A stretch of 64,000 nt of DNA from Dehalococcoidia bacterium (GTDB taxonomy: Bacteria; Chloroflexota; Dehalococcoidia; CAUJGQ01), in contig DATGEL010000003.1 in the NCBI GenBank assembly GCA_035310145.1, positions 4,779 through 68,778 of the forward strand, written 5' to 3'. The notes under the pieces were generated by a model that saw only the letters and a list, made by a program, of their open reading frames with translations, was not told the DNA's origin and ran no database searches. Positions 5,844-18,208 of this stretch are shown in pieces (the first letter of the stretch is position 1; every line of letters begins with the position of its first letter). The translations under genes and the position numbers were made by a program.

Positions 5844-6578
5844 ATGCCGCCGAGCGCTATCCTCTTCGACTTCTACGGCACGCTGGCCTCCGGCCAAAAC
5901 CTCGGCAACGTGCGTGAGTTGGAACTGTTCGCCCAGTTCGGCTACCGGGTCGACGCCGAGCAACTCCGCCGCAGCCGCGCGGCAGTGCAGGCGCGGCTCG
6001 ACGGGCCGGAGCCGATCGACCACCGCGAGTTCAGCGTGAGCCGTGAGCGGTACAACGAGTTTCAGCGCCGCCATTATGCCGTCGGGCTGCGCGAATGCGG
6101 CGTCGATCCGGACCATCCGGGACTGTTCGAGCGGCTTTGCGAACTGTGGGACGACCCGTCGCCGATCTACCTCTTCGACGACGCCCTGCCCGTGCTGGCC
6201 GAGCTGCGCGGTGCCGGCTACCGCCTCGGCCTCGTCTCGAACTGGTCGTGGGGACTGGAGACGATCCTGCAGCGTACCGGCCTGGCGCCGCTGCTGGAGT
6301 GCGCCGTGGTTTCGGCCCGCGCCGGCTACCGCAAGCCGCATCCGGCGATCTACCGCCTCGCGCTCGACGCGCTCGGGCTGGAGGCCGACGAAGTCCTGTT
6401 CGTGGGCGACAACCCGCACGCCGATGTCGACGGCCCGCTTGCGGTGGGTATGGCGCCGGTGCAGATCGACCGCGTGGGCGAAGCGCTTCGCCGGCCCGGA
6501 ATCCCATGCATCTCTGAGCTTGCCGGACTGTTCAAGCTGCTGCCCGAGGGCCGCGCCGCGTCACGGCATTTTCCGTAG
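5844..6578 (+). CDS. HAD-superfamily hydrolase, L-2-haloacid-dehalogenase-like (motif I is DxYGTL).
   Basis: Motif I ILFDFYGTL, motif II GLVSNWS, motif IV VGDNPHADVDG. The start was moved to the ATG at 5844; the 5' 600 nt of the ORF is Arg-rich antisense junk. Confidence 0.75.
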   Translation: MPPSAILFDFYGTLASGQNLGNVRELELFAQFGYRVDAEQLRRSRAAVQARLDGPEPIDHREFSVSRERYNEFQRRHYAVGLRECGVDPDHPGLFERLCELWDDPSPIYLFDDALPVLAELRGAGYRLGLVSNWSWGLETILQRTGLAPLLECAVVSARAGYRKPHPAIYRLALDALGLEADEVLFVGDNPHADVDGPLAVGMAPVQIDRVGEALRRPGIPCISELAGLFKLLPEGRAASRHFP

Positions 6579-6606
6579 CGGCTGCACCGCAACTTCAGTT
6601 CGATGA

Positions 6607-6645
6607 CCCCTCGCCTTCCCTCCTGGAGTGGGAGGAGGCGAGGGG
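6607..6645. repeat. GC-rich palindromic hairpin repeat (family member, reverse orientation). Possible bidirectional terminator between convergent genes.
   Basis: cccctcgccttccctcc / tggagtg / ggaggaggcgagggg, an imperfect inverted repeat of about 16 bp, flanked by gcgatc. Confidence 0.5.
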
Positions 6646-6784
6646 CGATCGCTGGCTGGATGTTCCGGGGCCGCGGCCGGTTAGCAGGCAAGGGCAGGAG
6701 CAGGTGGCGCCCCCTTCGCGCCGCGATGCGCGAGCAGCGGCGCTCGACCACCTCGACGTCGCCCGAAGCGCTTCAAACAGGATC

Positions 6785-6812
6785 GCCCCTCTCCCAATCC
6801 TGGGAGAGGGGC
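6785..6812. repeat. GC-rich palindromic hairpin repeat (family member).
   Basis: gcccctctccca / atcc / tgggagaggggc, a perfect 12-bp stem, preceded by gatcgc. Confidence 0.55.
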
Positions 6813-6860
6813 AAGTGACGACGGACAAGTGACATGAAATGCGGGCCGAACGGCGCCGGG

Positions 6861-7370
6861 TTACACGCCCACCGGCACCTTCGTGGGGCGGGTGATCGGC
6901 GTGGCGCGGGTCTGCACCGAGTCGTCGAGGTCGCGCTCGTCCAACGCGCGCACCCAGCAGGCGAACTCCAGCAGGATGCCGTCCGGGTCGCGGAAGTAAA
7001 TCGACTTGCAGAACTCGTGATCAAGCGCCCACATCGACTCGACGCCGGCCTCTTCCAGCCGATCCCAGGCGGCCCAGAGCTCGTCTTCGTTCTCGACGGT
7101 GAAGGCCACGTGGTGCATTGAGGCGTGCGCGCTGTGGAACTGCGTGTAGCCGGCGTTGCCGACGCCGGGCTGCGCCTCGGGCGCCTCGGGGAACCAGAAG
7201 AAGGCGAGCTGGTTGCCGCCGCCCATGTCGAAGAAGTAGTGCTTCGCGCCGCCGCGGATATTCAGCTTCGCGGTGAGCTTCATGCCCATCACGTCGGTGT
7301 AGAACCGCACCGTGCGGTCCATATCGCTGCAAACCAGCGCGAGGTGGTGAACGCCCTGTGCCCGGATCAT
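6861..7370 (-). CDS. VOC family protein (glyoxalase / bleomycin resistance / extradiol dioxygenase fold).
   Basis: MIRAQGVHHLALVCSDMDRTVRFYTDVMGM...HVAFTV pattern, with an AAGGAG RBS. Confidence 0.8.
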   Translation of the reverse strand: MIRAQGVHHLALVCSDMDRTVRFYTDVMGMKLTAKLNIRGGAKHYFFDMGGGNQLAFFWFPEAPEAQPGVGNAGYTQFHSAHASMHHVAFTVENEDELWAAWDRLEEAGVESMWALDHEFCKSIYFRDPDGILLEFACWVRALDERDLDDSVQTRATPITRPTKVPVGV

Positions 7371-7520
7371 GCTCGTCTCCTTTCGGGGTGCCGGCTACGA
7401 ACTGCTTCTTACAGTAGCACCGATATGCCCAGCTTTCCACAGACCCGCGCGAAGATCGCGATTCCGCTGGGCCGGATCGCTTGCACATCTCAGGCGTCCG
7501 CCGAGCGACGGAAGGTATTC

Positions 7521-8798
7521 TCAGGCGGGGAAGCGCTGCTTCAGCCATGCCGCGAGGATGCCCGCGAACTCCGCGCGCGGGTTTGTGCCCGGTGCGTCCG
7601 GCAGCGGGCGCAGGTAGTGGTCGGCGCCGCTGAGGTCGTGGCGCACCTTGTCCGGCGCCGCGATCGCGTTCCACATCGAATCGGCGTTGGCGGGCAGGAT
7701 ATCGCTGTCGCCATCGGCCGCTGTGAACAGTGTCGGCACGGTGATGCTGCGCGCGTTCTCGACGAAGTTCGCCCGCGACGACGTGCCGCTCCAGGTCGAA
7801 AGCCAGGCGCGGGGCGAGAGCACGCGCGAGATGTTGCTGGAGAAGTAGTTGCCGAACTCCGGCCGCGCCGTCGGGCCGCCGAAGATCGTGCCGATCGGCC
7901 GGCGATTCGGGTCGATGCTCAGGTCGAGATAGGCCGGATTCGCCACGGTGCGGTAGATCAGCATCAGCCGGTGCGGAATCGCGCGGCGGCGGGCGCGAAT
8001 CAGCGCGTACGGCGCCATGCCGCTGCCGGCCGCCGCGCCCGCTCCCTCCCGTTCCTCGGCCAGGTGGGCGCGGGCGATCGCATCGAGCCGCAGGTGGCGC
8101 GCCCGCTGCGCCTCTCGGTAGCTTGCCAGCCAACCGCGGGCGTACGTCGCCGTGCCCGTTCCCGGGTCGTAGCCGTTCTCCGGGTTGAACATGTCGAGCG
8201 CGGGGTCGCAGGAGAGCGGGTCGGCCTCGTCCGTGACCGAGGGGTCGATGCTTTGCAGCATGAACAGCCCCTCGCCCGAGTGCGCGGCCAGCGCCACGAA
8301 GCCGTCGCCTGCAGGCAGGTCGCCGGTCAGGTCCACGTGGCTGCCGCCGGGCGTGTCCTGCTCGCGTTCCGCCGGCGGCAGCACCGCCTGCGCCTGGTAG
8401 AAGGCATAGAGCGAGGCACCGCCGCTGTTGCCGAGCAGCACGATGTTCTGAAAGCCGCGGGCGCGCAGGTGACGTAACCCAGCGGCGATGTCCAGCACCA
8501 GCCGCTCATGAATCGCTTCGGTGTCGTTGTTGAGGTAGCGGCTGTTGTGCCCCCAGGCCGCGTAGCCGGCCGCCACCAGGTAGGGCACGGCGTAGTGGCG
8601 GGCGAAGTCGCCGCGGGGGTGCATCAGGCAGCACACGGTGCGCGGCAGCCGGCCGGCGGGATAGTAGAGCACGCCGGCGCTCTCGGCGCTGTCGTCGGCG
8701 AAGAGCCGCTGCGGCTCGATCGCCGTGTTATCGGGGAGCGCATCGTAAAACGGCCCTCCGCGGAACTCGGCGGTGTGGGAAACCACCTGCTGTGTCAT
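7521..8798 (-). CDS. Alpha/beta-hydrolase fold protein.
   Basis: GNSGGA nucleophile elbow (GxSxG). The start was set at ATG 8798 (MTQQVVSH), downstream of an Arg-rich extension. Confidence 0.65.
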   Translation of the reverse strand: MTQQVVSHTAEFRGGPFYDALPDNTAIEPQRLFADDSAESAGVLYYPAGRLPRTVCCLMHPRGDFARHYAVPYLVAAGYAAWGHNSRYLNNDTEAIHERLVLDIAAGLRHLRARGFQNIVLLGNSGGASLYAFYQAQAVLPPAEREQDTPGGSHVDLTGDLPAGDGFVALAAHSGEGLFMLQSIDPSVTDEADPLSCDPALDMFNPENGYDPGTGTATYARGWLASYREAQRARHLRLDAIARAHLAEEREGAGAAAGSGMAPYALIRARRRAIPHRLMLIYRTVANPAYLDLSIDPNRRPIGTIFGGPTARPEFGNYFSSNISRVLSPRAWLSTWSGTSSRANFVENARSITVPTLFTAADGDSDILPANADSMWNAIAAPDKVRHDLSGADHYLRPLPDAPGTNPRAEFAGILAAWLKQRFPA

Positions 8799-8905
8799 CG
8801 CTGCAGACCTCACAAACCTCGCTGATCTTGGCCTTCGCCCGGCCAGTGTGGGCGATGGCCGGCGCGGAGTAAAGGGGCGTTTGACGGGAAGCCTCAGCGC
8901 TCGCA

Positions 8906-11155
<2,250 letters not shown>

Positions 11156-11173
11156 TCGGACCAAACGCCGACC

Positions 11174-11557
11174 TCAGTCCAGCTCCGCGATCGCCTCGAT
11201 CTCCACGAGGAAATCTGGCGTGGCGAGGCTGGAGATCACGACGAACGTGCTGGCCGGCCAGTCGGACTGCCAGTACTTGCTCCGCGCCTCCGCAATCGCC
11301 GGCCGGTAGGCGAGGCTTGTCGTGTAGGTATTCAGCTTGACGATGTTCTGCATCTTGCCGCCGGCGGCTTCCACGACGTTCTGCAAGTTGGCGAAGACCT
11401 GCGCCGCCTGCGCGGCGATGTCGCCCGGCCCGACCAGCTTGCCATCGCTGTCCTGCGCGACCTGCCCGCTGATGTAGAGCGTCTTGCCGGCGCGCGTGGC
11501 GTGTGAATAGCCGGTGGTGGGGTGCACGGCGCCCGGCTTCAGGATCTCGTGAGCCAT
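11174..11557 (-). CDS. RidA/YjgF/TdcF family reactive-intermediate deaminase.
   Basis: MAHEILKPGAVHPTTGYSHA...LYISGQ...NIVKLNTYT...ATPDFLVEIEAIA. Start at ATG 11557. Confidence 0.8.
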   Translation of the reverse strand: MAHEILKPGAVHPTTGYSHATRAGKTLYISGQVAQDSDGKLVGPGDIAAQAAQVFANLQNVVEAAGGKMQNIVKLNTYTTSLAYRPAIAEARSKYWQSDWPASTFVVISSLATPDFLVEIEAIAELD

Positions 11558-11588
11558 CGTCTCTCTCCCCGGCCGCTGGATATGAGGG

Positions 11589-12260
11589 TCAGCCGTCTTT
11601 GAAACGGTAGCCCACGTTGCGCACCGTGTCGATGAAGATGTCGCCCTGGCGCAGCTCGATCTTGCTGCGCAGGCGGCGGATGTGCACATCCACGGTGCGG
11701 GCGCCGCCGAAGTAGTCGTAACCCCAGACGCGGTTGAGCAACTGCTCGCGGGTGAAGACCTTGGCCGGATTGCTCATCAGGAAGCGCAGCAGCTCGTACT
11801 CTTTGTAGGTCAGCTCCACGGGCTGGCCGGCCACCGTGACCTTGTAGTTGGCGAGGTCGATCATCAGGTCACCGCAGCGCAGCACGTTCTGCGCGTCCAC
11901 ATTCGTCCTCCGGCGCAGCGCCAGCCGCACGCGCGCCACCAGCTCACCGGGCCGTGTCGGCTTAAGCAGCACGTCGTCCGGCGGTGGTCCGCCGTCGAGA
12001 CCCGCCAGCGATTCGTCGGCCAGCATCACCAGCACGGCGGCGTGCTCCGCGATCGCCTGGTCATCTTGCAGCCGGCGCAGCAACTCCGTGCCCGCCGCCT
12101 CCAGATCGACGAGCAGGAGATCGGGCGGCGCCTGCTGGATGCGCTCGAACGCGGATTCGGAAACCGCCAGCGCGGCGGCGCGAAAGTCGTGTTGCTCCAG
12201 CACGCCGGCGAGAAAGCGCCCCTCGCCGTCGTCGTTGCCGAGCAGCACGATGTGGTACAT
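11589..12260 (-). CDS. OmpR/PhoB-family response regulator (receiver domain plus winged-helix domain), orphan (no adjacent kinase).
   Basis: Receiver domain with LLVDL phospho-Asp region, and a C-terminal YKEYELLRFL...VDVHIRRLRSK...VGYRF winged helix. GGGAGGAG RBS before ATG 12260. Confidence 0.8.
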   Translation of the reverse strand: MYHIVLLGNDDGEGRFLAGVLEQHDFRAAALAVSESAFERIQQAPPDLLLVDLEAAGTELLRRLQDDQAIAEHAAVLVMLADESLAGLDGGPPPDDVLLKPTRPGELVARVRLALRRRTNVDAQNVLRCGDLMIDLANYKVTVAGQPVELTYKEYELLRFLMSNPAKVFTREQLLNRVWGYDYFGGARTVDVHIRRLRSKIELRQGDIFIDTVRNVGYRFKDG

Positions 12261-12402
12261 GGCTCCTCCCGACTGGTCGATGGCTCGCTGGACAGGCAAG
12301 TGTAGCAGACGGATCGTACAGGGAGGTTTCAGGCGCGTTTCCTGCCGTTGCGGCCCCGCGCCGCGGCTGGCATGATCGCGGCAACCCGCGAAGGAGCCGC
12401 AG

Positions 12403-13212
12403 ATGACCAGCGCCGCGAAAGCCTACAGCGACATTCTCTACGAAAAGCACGACGACGGCGTGCTCGTCCTGACGCTTAACCGGCCCGAACGCATGAACGC
12501 GCTCGGCGGCGAGCTTGCGTCCGAGTTGATGGACGCCTTCGCCCGCGCCCGCCTCGATGACGACGTGCGCGCCGTGGTGCTTACCGGCGCCGGTCGCGGC
12601 TTCTGCGCGGGCGCCGATCTCTCGCGCGGCACGCCGAAGAGCGGGGACACCGCCCGCCACGCACGCTTGGACCGCATGGGCCGCGCTGGCCCGTTCATGC
12701 TCGCGCTGCGCGACATTGACAAGCCGACGATCGGCGCGATCAACGGCGTGGCCGCCGGCGCCGGCATCGGCATCGCCACCTCGCTCGACATCCGCATCGC
12801 CTCCAGCGAAGCCCGCTTCACCACGGTCTTCATCAAGCGCGGCCTGGGGCCGGACTTCGGCTCGTCCTACTTCATTCCGAGGCTGGTCGGCAGCGCGCGG
12901 GCCTACGAGCTGTTCTTCACCGGCCGCTTCGTCACGGCGGAGGAGGCGCTGCAGATCGGCCTCGTCAATCGCGTGGTCGAGCCATCGAGGCTGATGGACG
13001 AGGCGCTGGCGCTGGCGCGCGAGCTGGCCGCCGGCCCGCCCATGGCGATGACCTTCACGCGGCGCGCCCTGCAGCGCAGCCTGCAAAGTACGCTGGAACA
13101 GCAGCTTGAGTTCGAGTGGACCAACCAGATCGTGGCGCTCGACTCCGAGGACGCGCGCGAGGGCGTGCAGGCCTGGGCGGAGAAGCGCACGCCGCACTTC
13201 GAAGGGCGCTGA
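12403..13212 (+). CDS. Enoyl-CoA hydratase/isomerase (crotonase) family protein.
   Basis: VLTGAGRGFCAGADL oxyanion-hole motif, with an AAGGAG RBS. Confidence 0.85.
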   Translation: MTSAAKAYSDILYEKHDDGVLVLTLNRPERMNALGGELASELMDAFARARLDDDVRAVVLTGAGRGFCAGADLSRGTPKSGDTARHARLDRMGRAGPFMLALRDIDKPTIGAINGVAAGAGIGIATSLDIRIASSEARFTTVFIKRGLGPDFGSSYFIPRLVGSARAYELFFTGRFVTAEEALQIGLVNRVVEPSRLMDEALALARELAAGPPMAMTFTRRALQRSLQSTLEQQLEFEWTNQIVALDSEDAREGVQAWAEKRTPHFEGR

Positions 13213-13247
13213 GCCCCCGACGACTCCATGCGACACGGAGGCCCGCC

Positions 13248-15926
13248 ATGCCCTACGACGCGATCGTGGTCGGCGCCGGCTCGGCCGGCTCGGTGATCGC
13301 CGCCCGGCTCAGCGAAGATCCGCGGCGCTCCGTGCTGCTGCTGGAGGCCGGGCCGGACTACGCCGATCTCGCCAGCACACCGCCGGACCTGCTCAACGGC
13401 CTCTGGAACTCGACCCGGCCGCACGACTGGCGCTTCCGCGCCCATCATTCCCAGACGGGCCGCCCGCACCTGATGCCGCGCGGCCGCGTCACCGGCGGCT
13501 CCTCGGCGGTGAACACGACGATCGCCCTGCGCGGCGTGCCGGAGGACTACGACGCGTGGGCGGCGCTCGGCAACGGCGAGTGGTCCTGGGAGAGCGTCCT
13601 GCCGTTCTTCCGCGCCATGGAGCACGACGTCGACTTCGCCGACGACTTTCACGGCCAGTCCGGCCCGATCCCGGTGCGGCGTTACTCCTATACGCGCAAT
13701 GAGCTGGTCAACTGGCAGCGCGCCTTCGTGGACGCCTGCCGGCACCTCGGCCTGTCCAGCGCCGCCGACAACAACGACCCCAACGCCACTGGCTGTGGCC
13801 CGCACCCGATGAACCGCGAGGGCAGCCTGCGCATCTCGACCGCGATCGCCTACCTGGCGCCGGCGCGCGGCCGGCCGAACCTGACCGTGCGCGGCGACAC
13901 GCACGTGCGCCGCGTGCTGCTGGATGGCTCGCGGGCGGTGGGCGTCGAGATCGAGACCGATGGGGCGCCGGAATCGATCTTCGCGGACCTGATCGTGCTC
14001 TGCGCCGGCGCACTGCAAAGCCCGGCGATCCTGATCCGCTCCGGCATCGGCGGGCGCGAGGCACTTGGCCGGCTCGGGCTGCCTGTCGCCGTGGAGCTGG
14101 CGGGCGTCTGCGAACACCTCTGCGACCACCCGGTGGCCGGCGTGATCTACGAACCACGGCCGGGGGTCTGCCGCACGGACGTGCCCTCGGTGCAGGTGAC
14201 GTACCGCTATACGGCGGCAGGCAGCGATCAGCGCAACGACATGCAGGTGATGCCGGTTTCCTTCTACCAGACCGCAGACGGGCCGGTGTATTCGATCGGC
14301 GTCGTCGTGGAGCAGGTGCGCGGCCACGGCCGGCTCGTGGTCGAGTCGCTGAACCCGCGTCTGCAGCCGCGCATCGAGTCGCACTTTCTGGAAGACGAGG
14401 AAGACCTGCGGCGCATGGTTGACGGCATGCGCCTGGCGCTGCGCCTGGGCGAGACGGAGCCGCTGCGCGCGCTGCATACCGGCATCCGCCGGCCGCGCGC
14501 GCAGCACCTGGAAAGCGATGCGTCGTTGGCGGCCTGGGTGCGGCGGGTGGCCGACTCCGGCTTTCATCCCTGCGGCACGGCGAAGATGGGGCCGGCGAGC
14601 GACCCCATGGCCGTAGTCGATCAGCACGGCCGCGTATACGGCGTGCGGGGGCTGCTGGTGGCCGACGCCTCGATCATGCCGACGGTGCCGCGCGCCAACA
14701 CCAACTTCACCTCGATCATGATCGGCGAGCGCATCGGCGCCTGGCTGCGCGACGGCATGGCGGGCACCGACGTCGCCGCTGCTCCGGCGCACGCCATTGC
14801 GTCCAAAGACCTGCAGGCCGTCGCACCGAACGGCCGGCCTATGCCGGAACACCCGGTCGCGCCGCGCCCCACACGCAGCCCGTTCGCCGTTGCCAGGGAT
14901 CGCGGCGCAGATTATCTCGAATCCCGCCAGCGCGAGGACGGCCTCTTGGGCGACGAATCCGGCGGCCTGGGCGGCTTCTACAAGGCGACCTACGCCCTGG
15001 CAGCGGCCGGTCGCACGCGGGCCGCCGGGCGGATGGCCGGCTGGCTGCGCAGGAACGCAGCCACGCCGGAGGGCGACTTCGTCGGCGACTGGGAACGCGG
15101 CGGTCTTGCCGATCTGTATCCGTACGGCAACGCCTGGATCGCGGCCGGGCTGATTCGCGCCGGCGCCATCGGCCTCGGCGGCCGTGGGCTGGACTTCCTC
15201 GCGACGATGCAAGACCCGGAGTCGGGCGGCCTGCGCACACGCATCGACCGCAACGGCCCGGAGGTGCGGCAGGAGGTGATGTCCAGCGCAATGGCAGGCG
15301 TCGCGGCGCTGATCGGCGGGCGGCTGGAGATGGCGGACGGTGTCGCCCGCTTCCTGCGCACCGTGCTGGCGGCGCAGCCGCGGCCGGCGGAGATGCTTTG
15401 CCACGTCTATACCCCCGCGCAAGGCGTGATCACCGAGTTTCCGGAGGAGAAGGCGCGCGAGTTCGCCGTGATCGCAAACCGGCCGCTGCAGGCGTACTTC
15501 ATGTACGGCATCGGCGCCGCCTTCATGACCGGCTACGCACAGGCTCGCGGCGACGGCCGCGCCCTCGACGACGCGGCCGCCTTCCTGCTGCCCGCCCTCA
15601 ACGCGACGGACGCGATGTACGAGACGGCGCAGGTGGGCAAGGTCGCCTGGGGCGCGGCGCTGCTGGCCGGCGCGACGGGAGACAGGACGCACCGCGATCT
15701 CGCCCTCCGCGCCGCCGGGGCGCTGCTGGCGCAGCAGAACCCGGACGGCAGCTGGGACAACACCGGCGGCTACACGACGGAAGGCTCTCGCGACGAGGTC
15801 ACGGCCGAGTTCGTGGCGATCATGGACTGGGTCGAGCAGGGGCTGGCCGGCGCCTCGCTCGACGGATTCAGGCCCCCGACACCGGCCGCGCTGCTGGCGG
15901 GCGCGCCGGCGAGCGGGCGGCGATGA
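13248..15926 (+). CDS. Fusion protein (892 aa): an N-terminal GMC-family FAD oxidoreductase of about 560 aa, joined to a C-terminal prenyltransferase/squalene-oxidase-repeat alpha/alpha-toroid domain of about 330 aa.
   Basis: MPYDAIVVGAGSAGSV Rossmann motif and the GMC C-terminal signature ADASIMPTVPRANTNFTSIMIGERIG. Then three Qx(D/E)GS(W)-type repeats (YLESRQREDGLLGDESGG, FLATMQDPESGGLRT, LLAQQNPDGSWDNTGG). GGAGG RBS. The reading frame is continuous. Confidence 0.75.
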   Translation: MPYDAIVVGAGSAGSVIAARLSEDPRRSVLLLEAGPDYADLASTPPDLLNGLWNSTRPHDWRFRAHHSQTGRPHLMPRGRVTGGSSAVNTTIALRGVPEDYDAWAALGNGEWSWESVLPFFRAMEHDVDFADDFHGQSGPIPVRRYSYTRNELVNWQRAFVDACRHLGLSSAADNNDPNATGCGPHPMNREGSLRISTAIAYLAPARGRPNLTVRGDTHVRRVLLDGSRAVGVEIETDGAPESIFADLIVLCAGALQSPAILIRSGIGGREALGRLGLPVAVELAGVCEHLCDHPVAGVIYEPRPGVCRTDVPSVQVTYRYTAAGSDQRNDMQVMPVSFYQTADGPVYSIGVVVEQVRGHGRLVVESLNPRLQPRIESHFLEDEEDLRRMVDGMRLALRLGETEPLRALHTGIRRPRAQHLESDASLAAWVRRVADSGFHPCGTAKMGPASDPMAVVDQHGRVYGVRGLLVADASIMPTVPRANTNFTSIMIGERIGAWLRDGMAGTDVAAAPAHAIASKDLQAVAPNGRPMPEHPVAPRPTRSPFAVARDRGADYLESRQREDGLLGDESGGLGGFYKATYALAAAGRTRAAGRMAGWLRRNAATPEGDFVGDWERGGLADLYPYGNAWIAAGLIRAGAIGLGGRGLDFLATMQDPESGGLRTRIDRNGPEVRQEVMSSAMAGVAALIGGRLEMADGVARFLRTVLAAQPRPAEMLCHVYTPAQGVITEFPEEKAREFAVIANRPLQAYFMYGIGAAFMTGYAQARGDGRALDDAAAFLLPALNATDAMYETAQVGKVAWGAALLAGATGDRTHRDLALRAAGALLAQQNPDGSWDNTGGYTTEGSRDEVTAEFVAIMDWVEQGLAGASLDGFRPPTPAALLAGAPASGRR

Positions 15927-16975
15927 GCGTGCGCATCGTCATTCCCGACGACTTCCCTCCGGCCTACGCCGGCCGGCCGGAGCTGGAGGAGCTGCGCAAG
16001 CTCGGCGAGGTCACGCTCTACGGCGACCGCGCCGACACGCGCGAGGAGCTCGTGCAACGGCTGGCCGGCGCGGACGCAGCGATCAACGTGCGCGCCTACA
16101 CGCGCTTCGACGAGGAGCTGTTTGCAGCGCTGCCGCGGCTCAAGCACGTCGCCATCTTCGGCGTCGGCACCGACAACTTCGACCTCGACGCGGCCACGCG
16201 GCACGGCGTAATCGTCAGCAACTGCCCCGGAGAAAACGCGCGCTCGGTGGCCGAGCTGGCGATCGCGCTGATGCTCGCCGTGGCGCGCACGATCCCGGCC
16301 TACGACCGCGACGTGCGCGCCGGACTCTGGAAGCACTACCATGGCATAGAGCTGGAGGGCAAGACACTCGGCGTGCTTGGCCTGGGCAGTATCGGACGGC
16401 ACGTGGCGCGCATGGGCGCAGGGCTGGGGATGAAGGTCGTGGCCTGGAGCCCGACACGTGACGAAGCCCGCGCGGCTGCCCTCAGCCTCACACAGCTTGA
16501 GCTCGGCGGCGTCCTGCGTCAGGCCGACGTGCTGCAAGTCTGTGTCGCCCTCTCCGAGCGCACGCGCGGGCTGATCGGCGAGCGGCAGTTCGCACTGATG
16601 AAGCCGGGCGCGATCCTGGTCAACACCGCCCGCGCCCCGATCGTGGACGAGCCGGCGTTGATCGCCGCGCTGCAGTCGGGCCGGCTGCGCGGCGCGGGCC
16701 TCGACGTCTTCGCGTCGGAGCCGCTGGCGCCGGACAGCCCGCTGCGAGCGCTGGAGAACGTCGTGCTCACGCCGCACGCCGGCTGGGTCACGACCGAGGC
16801 CAGCGCCCGCCTGCTGATCGCGCCGGTGCGCAACCTCGCCAACTGGCTTGCCGGCCAGCCGACGAACGTGGTGAACCCTGCGGCGCTCGCCCGCACAACT
16901 GACCCCGCTCCCTCTCCCAATGCTGGAGGGAGGGAGCGGGGCAATCCACTGGATGAAGGTCCGGGGACTCGCTGA
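15923..16975 (+). CDS. D-isomer-specific 2-hydroxyacid dehydrogenase, NAD-binding.
   Basis: GKTLGVLGLGSIGRHVA Rossmann motif and catalytic region ...LTPHAG.... Its ATG overlaps the upstream stop (ATGA), suggesting translational coupling. The C-terminal 25 aa are encoded through a hairpin-repeat element. Confidence 0.8.
   Translation: MSVRIVIPDDFPPAYAGRPELEELRKLGEVTLYGDRADTREELVQRLAGADAAINVRAYTRFDEELFAALPRLKHVAIFGVGTDNFDLDAATRHGVIVSNCPGENARSVAELAIALMLAVARTIPAYDRDVRAGLWKHYHGIELEGKTLGVLGLGSIGRHVARMGAGLGMKVVAWSPTRDEARAAALSLTQLELGGVLRQADVLQVCVALSERTRGLIGERQFALMKPGAILVNTARAPIVDEPALIAALQSGRLRGAGLDVFASEPLAPDSPLRALENVVLTPHAGWVTTEASARLLIAPVRNLANWLAGQPTNVVNPAALARTTDPAPSPNAGGRERGNPLDEGPGTR
16903..16941. 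repeat. GC-rich palindromic hairpin repeat (family member), located inside the 3' end of the 2-hydroxyacid dehydrogenase ORF.
   Basis: ccccgctccctctccc / aatgc / tggagggagggagcgggg. Confidence 0.5.
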
Positions 16976-17070
16976 GTTGGCCCTGCTCGGCGCGAATCCG
17001 ATCATGCCGCGAGCCATTGCAACTGATCAGAGATTCGCGCCTTCAGCCTTGATCGCCCGAAGATCGCTCT

Positions 17071-17098
17071 CCCCTTCCCCCAGAATTGGGGGAAGGGG
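17071..17098. repeat. GC-rich palindromic hairpin repeat (family member).
   Basis: ccccttccccc / agaatt / gggggaagggg, a perfect 11-bp stem, preceded by gatcgc (present twice). Confidence 0.55.
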
Positions 17099-17215
17099 CA
17101 GGGGGATGAGGGCCGGCCCCGAAGCTGCGCAAACCTGCGCGCGTCTCTGGCACCGCCGGATGCTAAGCTCAAAGCAGATTGTGGCTTCTGTCACAGGCTT
17201 CGCGGAGGGCGGGAG

Positions 17216-18208
17216 ATGCGCTACCGGCCGATCGGCGGCACCGGCTTGATGGCCTCGGAGTTCGGCTTCGGCGCCTGGACCATCGGCAGCGACTGGTGGG
17301 GGCACATCGACGACGATCAGGCGCGGCGCATGTTGAACCACGCCTTCGATCTCGGCGTCAACTTCTACGACACTGCGGACCAGTACGGCGAAGGCCGCAG
17401 CGAGCGCCTGATCGGCGAGACGTTCGCCGGCCGGCGCGACAAAGTCCTGATCGCCGGCAAGTTCGGTTACGACTTTTACGCCGGCCACCGGCGTGAGGGT
17501 CACAACGAGCTGCCGCAGAACTTCGCGCCGGAATTCGTGCGCTTCGCCCTCGAACGCTCGCTGCGCCGGCTGCAGACCGACTATCTCGACATCTGGCATA
17601 TCCACAACGCGCGCATGGAGTCGCTGCGCGACGACCGTCTCTGGCAGACGCTCGCCGACCTGCGGCGCGAGGGCAAGGTCCGCCACCTGGCGGTGGCGCT
17701 CGGCCCGGCAATCGGCTGGCTCGACGAGGGGTTGGCCGCGCTGCGCGAGCGGCCGATCGCGGCGATGCAGATCATCTACAACCTGCTGGAGCAGGAGCCG
17801 GGGCGCTCGTTTGTGCCCGACGCGGTGAAGCGCAACATCGGCCTGCTGGTGCGCGTGCCGCATTCCTCCGGCCTGCTCGAAGGCAAGTTCACGCTGGAGA
17901 CGACATTCGGCCCGAACGACCACCGTAGCCACCGTAAGCGCGAGTGGCTCGTGGACGGCCTGACGAAGCTGGAGCAACTGCGCTTTCTCACCGACGACGG
18001 CTCGCGCACGATCGGCCAGGCGGCGCTGCAGTGGCTCTACGCGCAGCCGCAGGTCTTCTCCGTGCTGCCGAACCTCTACGGCATGGAGCAGATCGAGGAG
18101 TTCGCCGCCGCCTCCGACGCGCCGCCGCTGAGCGAAGAGCAGGTCAACCGCGTGAACAAGCTGTTCGCGACGAACTACGGCCTGGCGACGGCAAGCGCCA
18201 GCGCGTAG
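17216..18208 (+). CDS. Aldo/keto reductase family oxidoreductase.
   Basis: GFGAWTIG...FYDTADQYG...SERLIGE...DYLDIWHIH motifs. Confidence 0.85.
   Translation: MRYRPIGGTGLMASEFGFGAWTIGSDWWGHIDDDQARRMLNHAFDLGVNFYDTADQYGEGRSERLIGETFAGRRDKVLIAGKFGYDFYAGHRREGHNELPQNFAPEFVRFALERSLRRLQTDYLDIWHIHNARMESLRDDRLWQTLADLRREGKVRHLAVALGPAIGWLDEGLAALRERPIAAMQIIYNLLEQEPGRSFVPDAVKRNIGLLVRVPHSSGLLEGKFTLETTFGPNDHRSHRKREWLVDGLTKLEQLRFLTDDGSRTIGQAALQWLYAQPQVFSVLPNLYGMEQIEEFAAASDAPPLSEEQVNRVNKLFATNYGLATASASA

Follow-up and report, generated by a model that had tools for sequence, protein, structure and literature searches.

The question raised by this locus is what four GC-rich hairpins are doing in a bacterial genome of about 70% GC, and how one of them came to be translated as the end of a protein. 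All four lie within the stretch of DNA analysed here (64,000 nucleotides, hereafter the window), two of them between the convergent genes for a HAD hydrolase and a VOC (glyoxalase-family) protein, and two at the end of a gene for a 2-hydroxyacid dehydrogenase. They had originally been predicted to be related, REP/MITE-like elements, one of which had been inserted into a reading frame and extended it.

Existence and arrangement of the hairpins

All four hairpins were found where they had been predicted (Table 1). Copies 2 and 4 have perfect 12-bp stems with 4-nt loops, and copies 1 and 3 have longer, imperfect stems, for which RNA folding gave -33.6 kcal/mol (z = -4.4 vs shuffles) and -36.9 kcal/mol (z = -6.7), respectively. 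Copy 1 had been described as reversed, and so it is, but copy 3 shares this orientation, opposite to that of copies 2 and 4, and the four are accordingly not independent elements but make up two inverted pairs. A GATCGC flank, ascribed to every copy, was confirmed for three of the four (6645-6652, GCGATCGC; 6781-6786; and at copy 4) but not for copy 3, which has CAATCC. The copies do belong to one family but have diverged strongly from each other, and the predicted 32-nt consensus, with up to three mismatches allowed, matches copy 2 alone.

Table 1. Positions of the composites, repeat copies, spacers and overlapping coding region in the window
Feature	Position	Strand	Description
Composite 1	6604-6826		Inverted pair of copies 1 and 2, between the HAD-hydrolase and VOC genes
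Copy 1	6604-6652	-	Long palindromic variant; hairpin 6607-6645
Composite 1 spacer	6653-6780	.	Motif CTGGATGTTCCGGGG at 6656-6670
Copy 2	6781-6826	+	GATCG; perfect 12-bp hairpin 6785-6812; decayed third block
Composite 2	16900-17114		Inverted pair of copies 3 and 4, at the dehydrogenase gene end
Copy 3	16900-16946	-	Long palindromic variant; hairpin 16903-16941
Composite 2 spacer	16947-17061	.	CTGGATGAAGGTCCGGGG at 16949-16966; used stop TGA 16973-16975
Copy 4	17062-17114	+	GATCGC (17062-17067); hairpin 17071-17098; three-block motif 17071-17112
2-hydroxyacid dehydrogenase CDS	15923-16975	+	350 aa; last 24-25 codons (from ~16900) are copy 3 and spacer

Structures of this kind could be suspected of being accidents of composition, i.e., palindromes that arose independently of each other in a genome of 70% GC. 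Many local folds in the window are as stable as these, and a ranking by folding energy over 46 nt is not discriminating at 70% GC. A generic inverted-repeat search of the window produced output dominated by low-quality GC palindromes, in which the four hairpins were not listed, and custom scripts were used in its place to locate them. The divergence of the copies from the consensus (more than three mismatches) could be read in the same way, as could the lack of enrichment of GCGATCGC (15 observed, 10.4 +/- 2.8 expected). Against this, the window holds no hairpins with a pyrimidine arm and a purine arm other than these four, and for stems of at least 11 bp the two observed, both perfect, compare with none in 60 first-order Markov simulations of the window. 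A profile trained on other genomes picks out exactly the same four sites, flanks and a spacer motif are shared, and relatives have the same layout. The four hairpins are not chance palindromes: the simulations and the profile result together rule this out, leaving a probability that is practically negligible. Because the repeat family to which they belong is real and dispersed, and its flanks are consistent, the counter-case that the original prediction had named, chance palindromes without consistent flanks, is not what the window contains. As an identity for GCGATCGC, a highly iterated palindrome of the HIP1 type was also considered and rejected; the motif shows no over-representation in the window, and 8 of 100 shuffles reach 15 occurrences.

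Family identity

Judged by their sequence, the four hairpins are diverged copies of a described bacterial repeat, BoxC / PIT / triplex-motif (TM) in the broad sense; the type of repeat is known, the host (Dehalococcoidia) is new and the layout is a variant one. BoxC, PIT and TM_ECO are one and the same element, with the pattern CCCTCNCCC-N3-6-GGGNGAGGG-N3-GGGNGAGGG (Holder et al. 2015, PMC4666352; earlier work includes that of Bachellier et al. in the 1990s and of Hoyne, Maher et al. 2000). For TM_ECO, 3610 copies are recorded across 262 genomes of Proteobacteria; in E. coli it is found in inverted pairs, its loci are locally variable, and a stable triplex forms in vitro, though even in this species none was detected in vivo (PMC4666352).

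A profile HMM built from 191 three-block elements of other genomes, the window being excluded from the training set, matched only these four sites in the window (E-values of 4e-5 for copy 2, 2e-4 for copy 4, 1e-3 for copy 3 and a weak 2.2 for copy 1). A hairpin-only pattern, GCCCCTYYCCCN{4,9}GGGRRAGGGG, matched at least 120 loci in public genomes of at least eight phyla (Chloroflexota, Pseudomonadota, Cyanobacteria, Planctomycetota, Acidobacteriota, Gemmatimonadota, Armatimonadota and Verrucomicrobiota). Among the matches listed, 106 of 133 hairpins (~80%) are accompanied by a third block, a mirror of the purine arm in which 8/9 or more of the triads are allowed ones; it lies on one side in 99 cases and on both sides in seven. 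This G-rich block, GGGGTGAGGG, was not part of the search pattern, and it is the signature of the BoxC / PIT / TM intrastrand-triplex repeats.

The family is recognised in its broad rather than its strict form. On both strands of the window the strict TM_ECO pattern gave no match, and none of the four copies fits it; among the matches listed it was found at 8 of 120 genome loci and 3 of 70 metagenome loci, compared to 141 and 73 sites, respectively, for a relaxed TM form. A generic definition of GC-rich intrastrand triplexes (ITxF) was also applied, with three blocks, a stem of 6-15 nt, at most one mismatch, short loops, and G*G, A*A and T*A triads. Only copy 4 fits it in full: the stem measures 11 nt and the loops 6 and 3 nt, Watson-Crick pairing is free of mismatches and a single triad is mismatched, the layout being CCCCTTCCCCC-agaatt-GGGGGAAGGGG-cag-GGGGATGAGGG. 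It is the one copy of the four with an intact three-block triplex motif, and triplex formation would be plausible for this copy only, by analogy with the E. coli motif, the only one for which it has been demonstrated in vitro. Copy 2 has arms CCCCTCTCCC and GGGAGAGGGG, which enclose the 9-nt E. coli type B blocks CCCTCTCCC and GGGAGAGGG, but its third block has decayed (GTGACGACGG at 6815-6824, 6/10 triads). Copies 1 (TGACCCCTCGCC-TTCCCTCC-TGGAGT-GGGAGGA-GGCGAGGGG-CGATCGC) and 3 (TGACCCCGCT-CCCTCTCCC-AATGCT-GGAGGGAGGG-AGCGGGG-CAATCC) lack an adequate third block, the best triplex arrangement of copy 1 reaching 5/7; the arm GGCGAGGGGCGATC of copy 1 is identical to that of metagenomic left-hand elements. 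The core recurs with little change on viral contigs as well as in eight or more phyla, and can be translated in frame, neither of which is described in PMC4666352.

Composites, relatives and the dehydrogenase tail

Each inverted pair forms a composite of ~215-225 bp with GATC on the inner flanks and a spacer of ~115-130 nt; outer flanks are of the TGA/CCCTCA type and inner ones of the (C)GATC(G) type. Copy 1 forms the HAD-hydrolase-side terminus of composite 1 and starts 25 nt past the HAD stop codon (6576-6578), and the outer end of copy 2 is ~34 nt from the VOC stop codon (6861-6863, minus strand). The same composite layout occurs in metagenomic relatives (L202, L143/L161, L140, L164, L166 and L171), and the genome of the closest relative (L134) likewise has a hairpin pair, one in 41.5 kb compared to four copies at two loci in the 64-kb window. 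The motif CTGGATGTTCCGGGG is common to both composites and L134. About 75 nt of the composite 1 spacer, on the side of copy 2, can be aligned to the spacers of L004 and L143 (..GCGTCGAG.., ..GCTGCTCGCG..CGGCGCGAAGGG..), and with the hairpin included the match to L004 covers 103 nt at 72% identity (E = 6e-8), but this conservation does not extend to the spacers of composite 2 and L202. Terminal modules also occur alone and in other arrangements, and the elements are found in both orientations relative to flanking genes as well as inside coding regions, with in-frame family members in L134 and in gltX-like, VgrG-like and PolA-like ORFs. By eye, several metagenomic composites begin 10-45 nt after a stop codon. 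A GC3-based gene caller, applied to element positions in 190 loci, mis-called known genes of the window and was dropped.

Presence or absence of the elements differs between relatives, and they coincide with breaks in homology. The orthologous HAD-VOC intergenic region of L134 and of a second relative (L137) has no hairpins and is unalignable to the window; in the closest relative it is 413 nt long, with no readable insertion boundaries or target duplication. The hairpin after the dehydrogenase gene is absent from three orthologues (L001, L127 and L130). At the other end of composite 2, homology to L330, upstream of an aldo-keto reductase (AKR) gene, starts just outside copy 4, at ~17118; more distant relatives keep the dehydrogenase and AKR genes adjacent with a gap of ~146 nt, and one other relative has a methyltransferase gene between them. 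It is from this distribution that the elements may be judged mobile, because none of seven composite ends showed a recognisable target-site duplication, and neither a clean empty site nor an associated transposase was found at the loci examined.

As predicted, copy 3 lies inside the dehydrogenase ORF and supplies its C-terminal tail (...TDPAPSPNAGGRERGNPLDEGPGTR), the translation across it reading ..DPAPSPNAGGRERGN... The further claim, that an insertion had extended the reading frame, holds in that copy 3 is translated, but insertion would not have sufficed, a 1-nt change of frame being needed as well. Close homologues are 326-332 aa in length, against 350 aa here. The three orthologues all end in ..GCC TGA, where the window has CGC ACA AC|TGA (CGCACAACTGA, within 16890-16905). 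The ancestral TGA is still present at the homologous position (16900-16902), where it makes up the first bases of copy 3, but the two codons before it together lack one base that the orthologues have, which puts it one nucleotide out of frame, and translation therefore continues for 24 residues through copy 3. Pfam domains end at residue 493 of a 525-aa ORF. Three assemblies are identical over 12.9-16.2 kb but possibly derive from the same reads, so a read-level error at the frame position is possible. As the sequence stands, the coding overlap is real, and it is probably a by-product. The 350-aa dehydrogenase model should be flagged as having a repeat-derived C-terminal extension.

Explanations and known systems

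With chance set aside, it could be argued that the hairpins are mainly terminators or 3'-end stabilisers of mRNA, selected or co-opted at the ends of the HAD, VOC and dehydrogenase genes, the first pair acting bidirectionally. Their RNA hairpins are very stable (-27 to -37 kcal/mol), all but copy 4 lie at or within ~35 nt of gene 3' ends, and the metagenomic composites that begin shortly after stop codons fit this picture. On the minus strand, copy 2 passed a terminator-like scan, with a 14-bp stem and the tail TCCTGTTTGA, 49 nt past the VOC stop. This T-rich tail is what stands of the predicted bidirectional terminators between the convergent genes; termination in both directions appears doubtful, as copies 1, 3 and 4 have no T-tract on either strand. 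Moreover, terminator-like structures in 6000-18000 are no more frequent than in shuffled sequence (5 vs 5.3 expected), copy 3 would fall within a translated region, other family members lie in frame inside genes, and the third block, GATC flank and spacer are conserved yet unnecessary for termination. In its account of the E. coli members, PMC4666352, citing Maher's group, gives them neither terminator nor promoter activity. An effect on transcript 3' ends may exist, but as a principal explanation termination or stabilisation is unlikely. Structured non-coding RNA genes or cis-regulatory RNAs are far less probable still: the folds are stable and ~75 nt of spacer is conserved between pair 1, L004 and L143, but a scan of the whole window against Rfam gave nothing at the gathering thresholds, conservation of the spacer is confined to some composites, and the elements occur in both orientations relative to neighbouring genes and inside coding regions. 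Pfam domains were likewise not detected in ORFs overlapping the spacer.

Being short, intergenic, GC-rich palindromes in inverted doublets with a spacer, the hairpins might also be REPs, that is, species-specific palindromes mobilised in trans by a RAYT (an IS200/IS605-like Y1 transposase), with the pairs as REPINs and the conserved inner GATCG imaginable as a cleavage motif. REPs are lineage-specific and co-inherited with their RAYT, but the core seen here is the same in at least eight phyla. No GTAG-type head is present at the four copies, the mirror third block that is the defining extra feature here is not part of REPs, and among the genes checked near elements (the 64-kb window and loci of up to 20 kb) there was no Y1 transposase. 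The label REP/MITE-like suits the pairs, whose layout resembles that of MITEs or REP clusters, but these are very probably not REPs in the RAYT sense, because the GTAG-type head is missing and the same sequence recurs across phyla; such an origin is improbable, only slightly less so than an RNA gene.

The reading preferred here, with a probability of roughly 0.7, is that the hairpins are the ends of two ~215-225 bp inverted-pair composites of the BoxC/PIT/TM family, selfish or near-neutral and in decay, and that the protein tail is a by-product. In the basic unit, a short loop would join a pyrimidine arm to the purine arm that pairs with it, followed in the ideal case by a G-rich third block that is the mirror image of the purine arm; as single-stranded DNA the unit could adopt either a hairpin or an intrastrand triplex of the purine-motif type, and its G-rich strand has four G-tracts. 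Such repeats, themselves non-coding, may become established at the ends of genes and at the junctions of rearrangements and degenerate afterwards, and the window would hold one unit still intact, one half-decayed and two remodelled into long palindromes. Copy 3 would have arrived directly after the dehydrogenase stop codon, and the loss of 1 nt in the last two codons would have displaced the TGA from frame, giving a read-through of 24 residues to the next stop in a C-terminus whose length is variable across the family. A known repeat, and not new biology, would then explain two intergenic regions and a 24-residue protein tail.

A broader proposal can be offered only tentatively. BoxC/TM may be a single, horizontally spreading family, nearly base-for-base the same from E. 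coli to Chloroflexota and also present on viral/prophage contigs, with MITE-like composites that insert at stop codons and inter-domain linkers and are repeatedly exapted in the manner of Rickettsia palindromic elements (RPE), and with a widely distributed, putative mobilising activity that recognises the three-block structure. Candidate exaptations are the dehydrogenase tails in two lineages, an IOR-like (indolepyruvate-ferredoxin-oxidoreductase-like) linker in L134, and the gltX-, VgrG- and PolA-like ORFs. The translated and cross-phylum copies bear on the means by which such repeats spread and on the reason for the tight constraint on their sequence.

Among known systems, BoxC/PIT/TM_ECO is the closest. 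It has the same order of pyrimidine arm, loop, purine arm and mirror G-rich third block, the core blocks of copy 2 are those of E. coli type B, and in L202 all three blocks are identical to TM_ECO no. 1. In both, the elements are mostly intergenic, often in inverted pairs and in locally variable or rearranged regions, and without known function or mobilising enzyme; TM_ECO is multi-copy, as the present elements probably are within their genome. The host differs, being a ~70% GC Dehalococcoidia MAG, whereas TM_ECO is reported only in Proteobacteria, other GC-rich motifs being known from Cyanobacteria, Thermus and others (PMC4666352). In the window the arms are 10-12 nt long, with a TT/AA interruption in copy 4 and a variable loop 2, the third blocks face outward with GATC(G) inside and a 115-130-nt spacer, whereas in E. 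coli the members of a pair face inward, ~17 nt apart, and two of the four copies have been remodelled into long palindromes. TM_ECO is 'always intergenic', but some members of the present family are translated. The G-tracts also recall the G-quadruplex motif KP-PGQ-5 of K. pneumoniae, GGGAGAGGGCCGGGGTGAGGG (PMC11170735), since purine arm and third block together supply four (GGGGGAAGGGGCAGGGGGATGAGGG in copy 4); this would be a putative alternative fold of the same sequence, in competition with hairpin and duplex.

REP/BIME/REPIN elements share with the present family short GC-rich extragenic palindromes, inverted doublets at gene 3' ends and a non-autonomous nature, but the latter has no GTAG head, no RAYT seen near its elements, a cross-phylum core and an extra mirror block. 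MITEs with hairpins, such as Neisseria Correia/NEMIS, are similar in their ~200 bp composites with inverted terminal modules, their position at gene boundaries and their possible effects on transcripts, but differ in that here no target-site duplication or parent transposon was found and the modules also occur alone. The coding cases recall RPEs (Ogata et al. 2000; Claverie and Ogata 2003, cited in PMC2267715), palindromic repeats that come to lie within protein-coding genes, where in-frame translation adds them to surface or linker parts of a protein that is not destroyed by them. Comparable cases here are the dehydrogenase tail, the inter-domain insertion in L134, and the gltX-, VgrG- and PolA-like ORFs. 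RPEs are ~100-150 bp, AT-rich and specific to Rickettsia, whereas the elements described here are mostly intergenic, and their coding cases are a minority by-product.

Hairpin pairs in the window

The four predicted GC-rich hairpins are all present (see table), in a window of 69.8% GC where many other folds are roughly as stable. What distinguishes them is that one arm is nearly pure pyrimidine and the other nearly pure purine, a composition found in the 64-kb window only in these four; two such hairpins with stems of at least 11 bp were observed, against none in 60 first-order Markov simulations. Copies 1 and 3 both start with TGACCCC and finish with GGGGC(G/A)ATC, followed by CTGGATG-N2-4-TCCGGGG, and GATCG(C) precedes copies 2 and 4. 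Copies 2 and 4 share one orientation and copies 1 and 3 have the opposite one, so that each locus is an inverted pair with GATC facing inward and about 115–130 nt of spacer between the two copies.

Hairpins, pairs and genes in the window, and related elements at other loci
Feature	Position	Strand	Description
HAD hydrolase gene	end 6578	plus	Pfam
Pair 1	6604-6826		copies 1 and 2
Copy 1	6607-6645		longer imperfect stem; RNA fold -33.6 kcal/mol, z = -4.4
Copy 2	6785-6812		perfect 12-bp stem, 4-nt loop
VOC (glyoxalase-family) gene	6861-7370	minus	Pfam
2-hydroxyacid dehydrogenase gene	15923-16975	plus	Pfam
Pair 2	16900-17114		copies 3 and 4
Copy 3	16903-16941		longer imperfect stem; RNA fold -36.9 kcal/mol, z = -6.7
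Copy 4	17071-17098		perfect 12-bp stem, 4-nt loop
Aldo-keto reductase (AKR) gene	17216-18208	plus	Pfam
Element at dehydrogenase end	L004:10966-11010		three-block
MITE-like element	L004:6066-6304		about 240 bp
Palindrome upstream of AKR	L330:300-400		purine/pyrimidine
Inverted pair in IOR-like gene	L134:17825-18000		read in frame
Single element	L169:1284-1316		read in frame
Single element	L195:94-126		read in frame
Single element	L153	minus	read in frame
Single element	L199	minus	read in frame

A widespread three-block repeat

A hairpin-only pattern, GCCCCTYYCCCN{4,9}GGGRRAGGGG, was run against one genome per GTDB species and matched at least 120 loci, those listed including members of the Chloroflexota, Cyanobacteria, Planctomycetota, Acidobacteriota, Gemmatimonadota, Armatimonadota, Verrucomicrobiota and many Pseudomonadota. 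Beside most of the listed hairpins stood a block that the pattern had not asked for, either CCCTCACCCC just 5' or its complement GGGGTGAGGG just 3'. A third block mirroring the purine arm (at least 8 of 9 allowed triads) accompanied 106 of 133 hairpins among the matches listed, on one side in 99 and on both in seven. A full-text literature search for the block strings located Holder et al. 2015 (PMC4666352), where the E. coli BoxC repeat, rediscovered as PIT elements, was renamed TM_ECO, with the pattern CCCTCNCCC-N3-6-GGGNGAGGG-N3-GGGNGAGGG. They counted 3610 in 262 proteobacterial genomes; MG1655 has 23 copies, all intergenic, with inverted pairs at five loci. As a single strand, TM_ECO forms a stable purine-motif triplex in vitro, and none was detected in vivo (PMC4666352). 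Elsewhere, BoxC is listed as a family of 56 bp with 32 copies (PMC2267715), and work on K. pneumoniae has regarded the G-rich strand as a G-quadruplex (PMC11170735). Whereas TM_ECO was described from Proteobacteria only (PMC4666352), the BoxC/TM core, CCCTCACCCC - N1-2 - GCCCCTCTCCC - loop - GGGAGAGGGG, occurs near-unchanged in at least eight bacterial phyla (e.g., genome matches L061, L062, L015, L038 and L074).

None of copies 1–4 matches the strict published TM_ECO pattern. The generic three-block arrangement is found in copy 4 only (CCCCTTCCCCC-agaatt-GGGGGAAGGGG-cag-GGGGATGAGGG, with one triad mismatch). The arms of copy 2, CCCCTCTCCC/GGGAGAGGGG, include the 9-nt E. coli type B blocks CCCTCTCCC/GGGAGAGGG, and its third block is decayed (6 of 10 triads). 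Copies 1 and 3 take the form of long palindromes, with the pyrimidine/purine hairpin inside an outer stem, similar to fully palindromic forms in L061 and L062. A profile HMM trained on 191 three-block elements of other genomes, the window sequence being excluded, detected these four copies and nothing else in the window up to an E-value of 10 (E = 4e-5, 2e-4, 1e-3 and 2.2). On these sequence grounds, we file the copies as diverged members of a broad BoxC/PIT/TM family and not as strict TM_ECO. The kind of repeat is already known; these are new members of it, in a new host (a MAG labelled Dehalococcoidia) and with a variant paired layout.

A metagenome scan with the hairpin pattern and a GATC flank returned 70 loci, nearly all again with the unrequested third block. 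Many share the layout of the window, [third-block complement - hairpin - CGATC] - spacer - [GATCG - hairpin - third block], examples being the metagenomic relatives L202, L143/L161, L140, L164, L166 and L171; all three blocks of TM_ECO no. 1 recur unchanged in L202. The spacer of pair 1 could be aligned with those of L143 and of the dehydrogenase orthologue locus L004, and its GGATG..TYCGGG motif is shared by the spacer of a pair in the closest relative genome (GCA_037025045.1). Element clusters are common, with more than one site in 51 of 120 genome loci among the matches listed, where adjacent pairs were outward-facing (19), inward-facing (15) or direct (15). The third blocks of E. coli pairs point inward across about 17 nt, whereas those of the window point outward around a long spacer, making the latter a variant layout.

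Other arrangements were also seen. A highly uniform sub-family in WBZO/WBZY/WBZR metagenome contigs (L144, L146, L150, L156, L158, L160, L162 and others) has a longer conserved repeat, 110 nt or more, around the three-block element GATCGCCCCTTCCCCCATCGCATGGGGGAAGGGGCCGGGGGTTAGGGGTCGCG, with as many as two copies per short contig. In L167, three units of about 80 nt stand in tandem and are closed by a full element, resembling a BIME cluster. The separate MITE-like element of L004 lies in a divergent intergenic region; two nested hairpins, CTGCTTTGCCTGACGGCAAAGCTG and TCCCTTCCC..GGAAGGG, lie in each of its terminal inverted repeats (about 55 nt).

At least 120 loci in IMG/VR viral contigs also match the hairpin pattern, and 59 of 129 hairpins among the matches listed have the third block. 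Most of those lacking it resemble ordinary terminators. Viral contigs might be one way in which the repeat spreads horizontally, but this is only a lead, as host DNA can be included in predicted prophages; for the E. coli motif, an association with phages was reported to be lacking (PMC4666352).

Homology breaks and translated copies

In the closest relative, the HAD-VOC intergenic region is 413 nt long, has no hairpin, and is unalignable with the 282 nt of the window. There is likewise no hairpin after the dehydrogenase in the orthologous loci L001, L127 and L130, where the next gene differs from that of the window, being a methyltransferase with a conserved upstream region (CACTTGCCAT..GATACAGATA); in the window the next gene is the AKR gene, as it is in L126 and in more distant relatives. 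This break in gene order (16976-17215) coincides with the repeat pair. L330, whose AKR is 91% identical, aligns only from about 17118 on, just outside copy 4, and has a different palindrome, GGGAAGGGGTGATTCG...CGAATCACCCCTTCC, at the same junction. Together, these comparisons indicate that the elements sit where homology or synteny breaks, which agrees with the instability association of the E. coli motif, whose loci vary more between strains than control loci (PMC4666352). Neither a clean empty site nor a target duplication was found among the relatives compared.

The dehydrogenase gene, whose start overlaps the preceding stop as ATGA, specifies 350 aa in the window against 326–332 aa in close homologues (86–88% identity). 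Its product is 100% identical to an NCBI protein from a Dehalococcoidia bacterium MAG. The DNA of L001, L127 and L130 ends ...CGN NNC GCC TGA at the same position, but the window reads ...CGC ACA AC TGA CCCC..., one base shorter, so that the conserved TGA (16900-16902) no longer falls in frame and the ORF runs on across copy 3 into the spacer, stopping at the TGA of 16973-16975. Copy 3 thus lies inside the ORF and supplies its tail, as predicted; an insertion had been thought to extend the frame, but the ancestral TGA is kept, displaced by the 1-nt shortening. The NCBI contig, Logan SRR5579859 and JGI 3300027857 are mutually identical over 16.2 and 12.9 kb, so the frame state is no artefact of one assembler, although the three may share reads. 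In a fourth orthologue, L004 (86% identity), another three-block element stands in for roughly the last five codons; ...PIPRPLPQ comes from it, and so does the TAA stop, which lies in its hairpin loop. Repeat-derived C-termini are thus found at this gene end in two lineages. Such a tail is probably tolerated, since the C-terminus after NVVNP differs in length across the family.

A 1232-aa indolepyruvate-ferredoxin-oxidoreductase-like (IOR-like) protein of L134 (GCA_037025045.1, contig JBAIIE010000300.1) includes the in-frame translation of an inverted pair, at about residues 700–747 between its TPP_enzyme_C (458–546) and POR (789–975) domains. Single three-block elements are read as DRPSP..G.GGGEG within long ORFs at L169, L195, L153 and L199. 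Judged by eye, the ORFs with in-frame elements are candidates for glutamyl-tRNA synthetase, VgrG and DNA polymerase I, the element occupying the same position in glutamyl-tRNA synthetase-like ORFs of two contigs and occurring twice in the PolA-like ORF.

Termination or structured repeat

The original prediction allowed that the hairpins between the HAD and VOC genes act as bidirectional terminators. Read on the minus strand, where it lies downstream of the VOC gene, copy 2 ends in a T-rich tail and passed a simple terminator scan, which the other copies failed; terminator-like sites across 6000–18000 were as numerous as expected from shuffles. Termination as what the hairpins are for would fit copy 2, but earlier work found neither promoter nor terminator activity of the E. 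coli motif (as given in PMC4666352), copies exist in frame inside coding sequence, and features with no part in termination are conserved; we thus rank it below the repeat reading, as a possible side effect and not the explanation. The best-supported reading is that the copies are a selfish or near-neutral structured repeat, which would accumulate at gene boundaries and then decay. The original interpretation holds in part: the predicted dispersed repeat and translated copy 3 stand, the family is of the BoxC/PIT/TM type, and terminator-like character is limited to copy 2.

The conservation of sequence across phyla and the recurrent translation deserve follow-up. The nearest known parallel to the in-frame copies is provided by the Rickettsia palindromic elements, to which the insertion in L134 is much alike.
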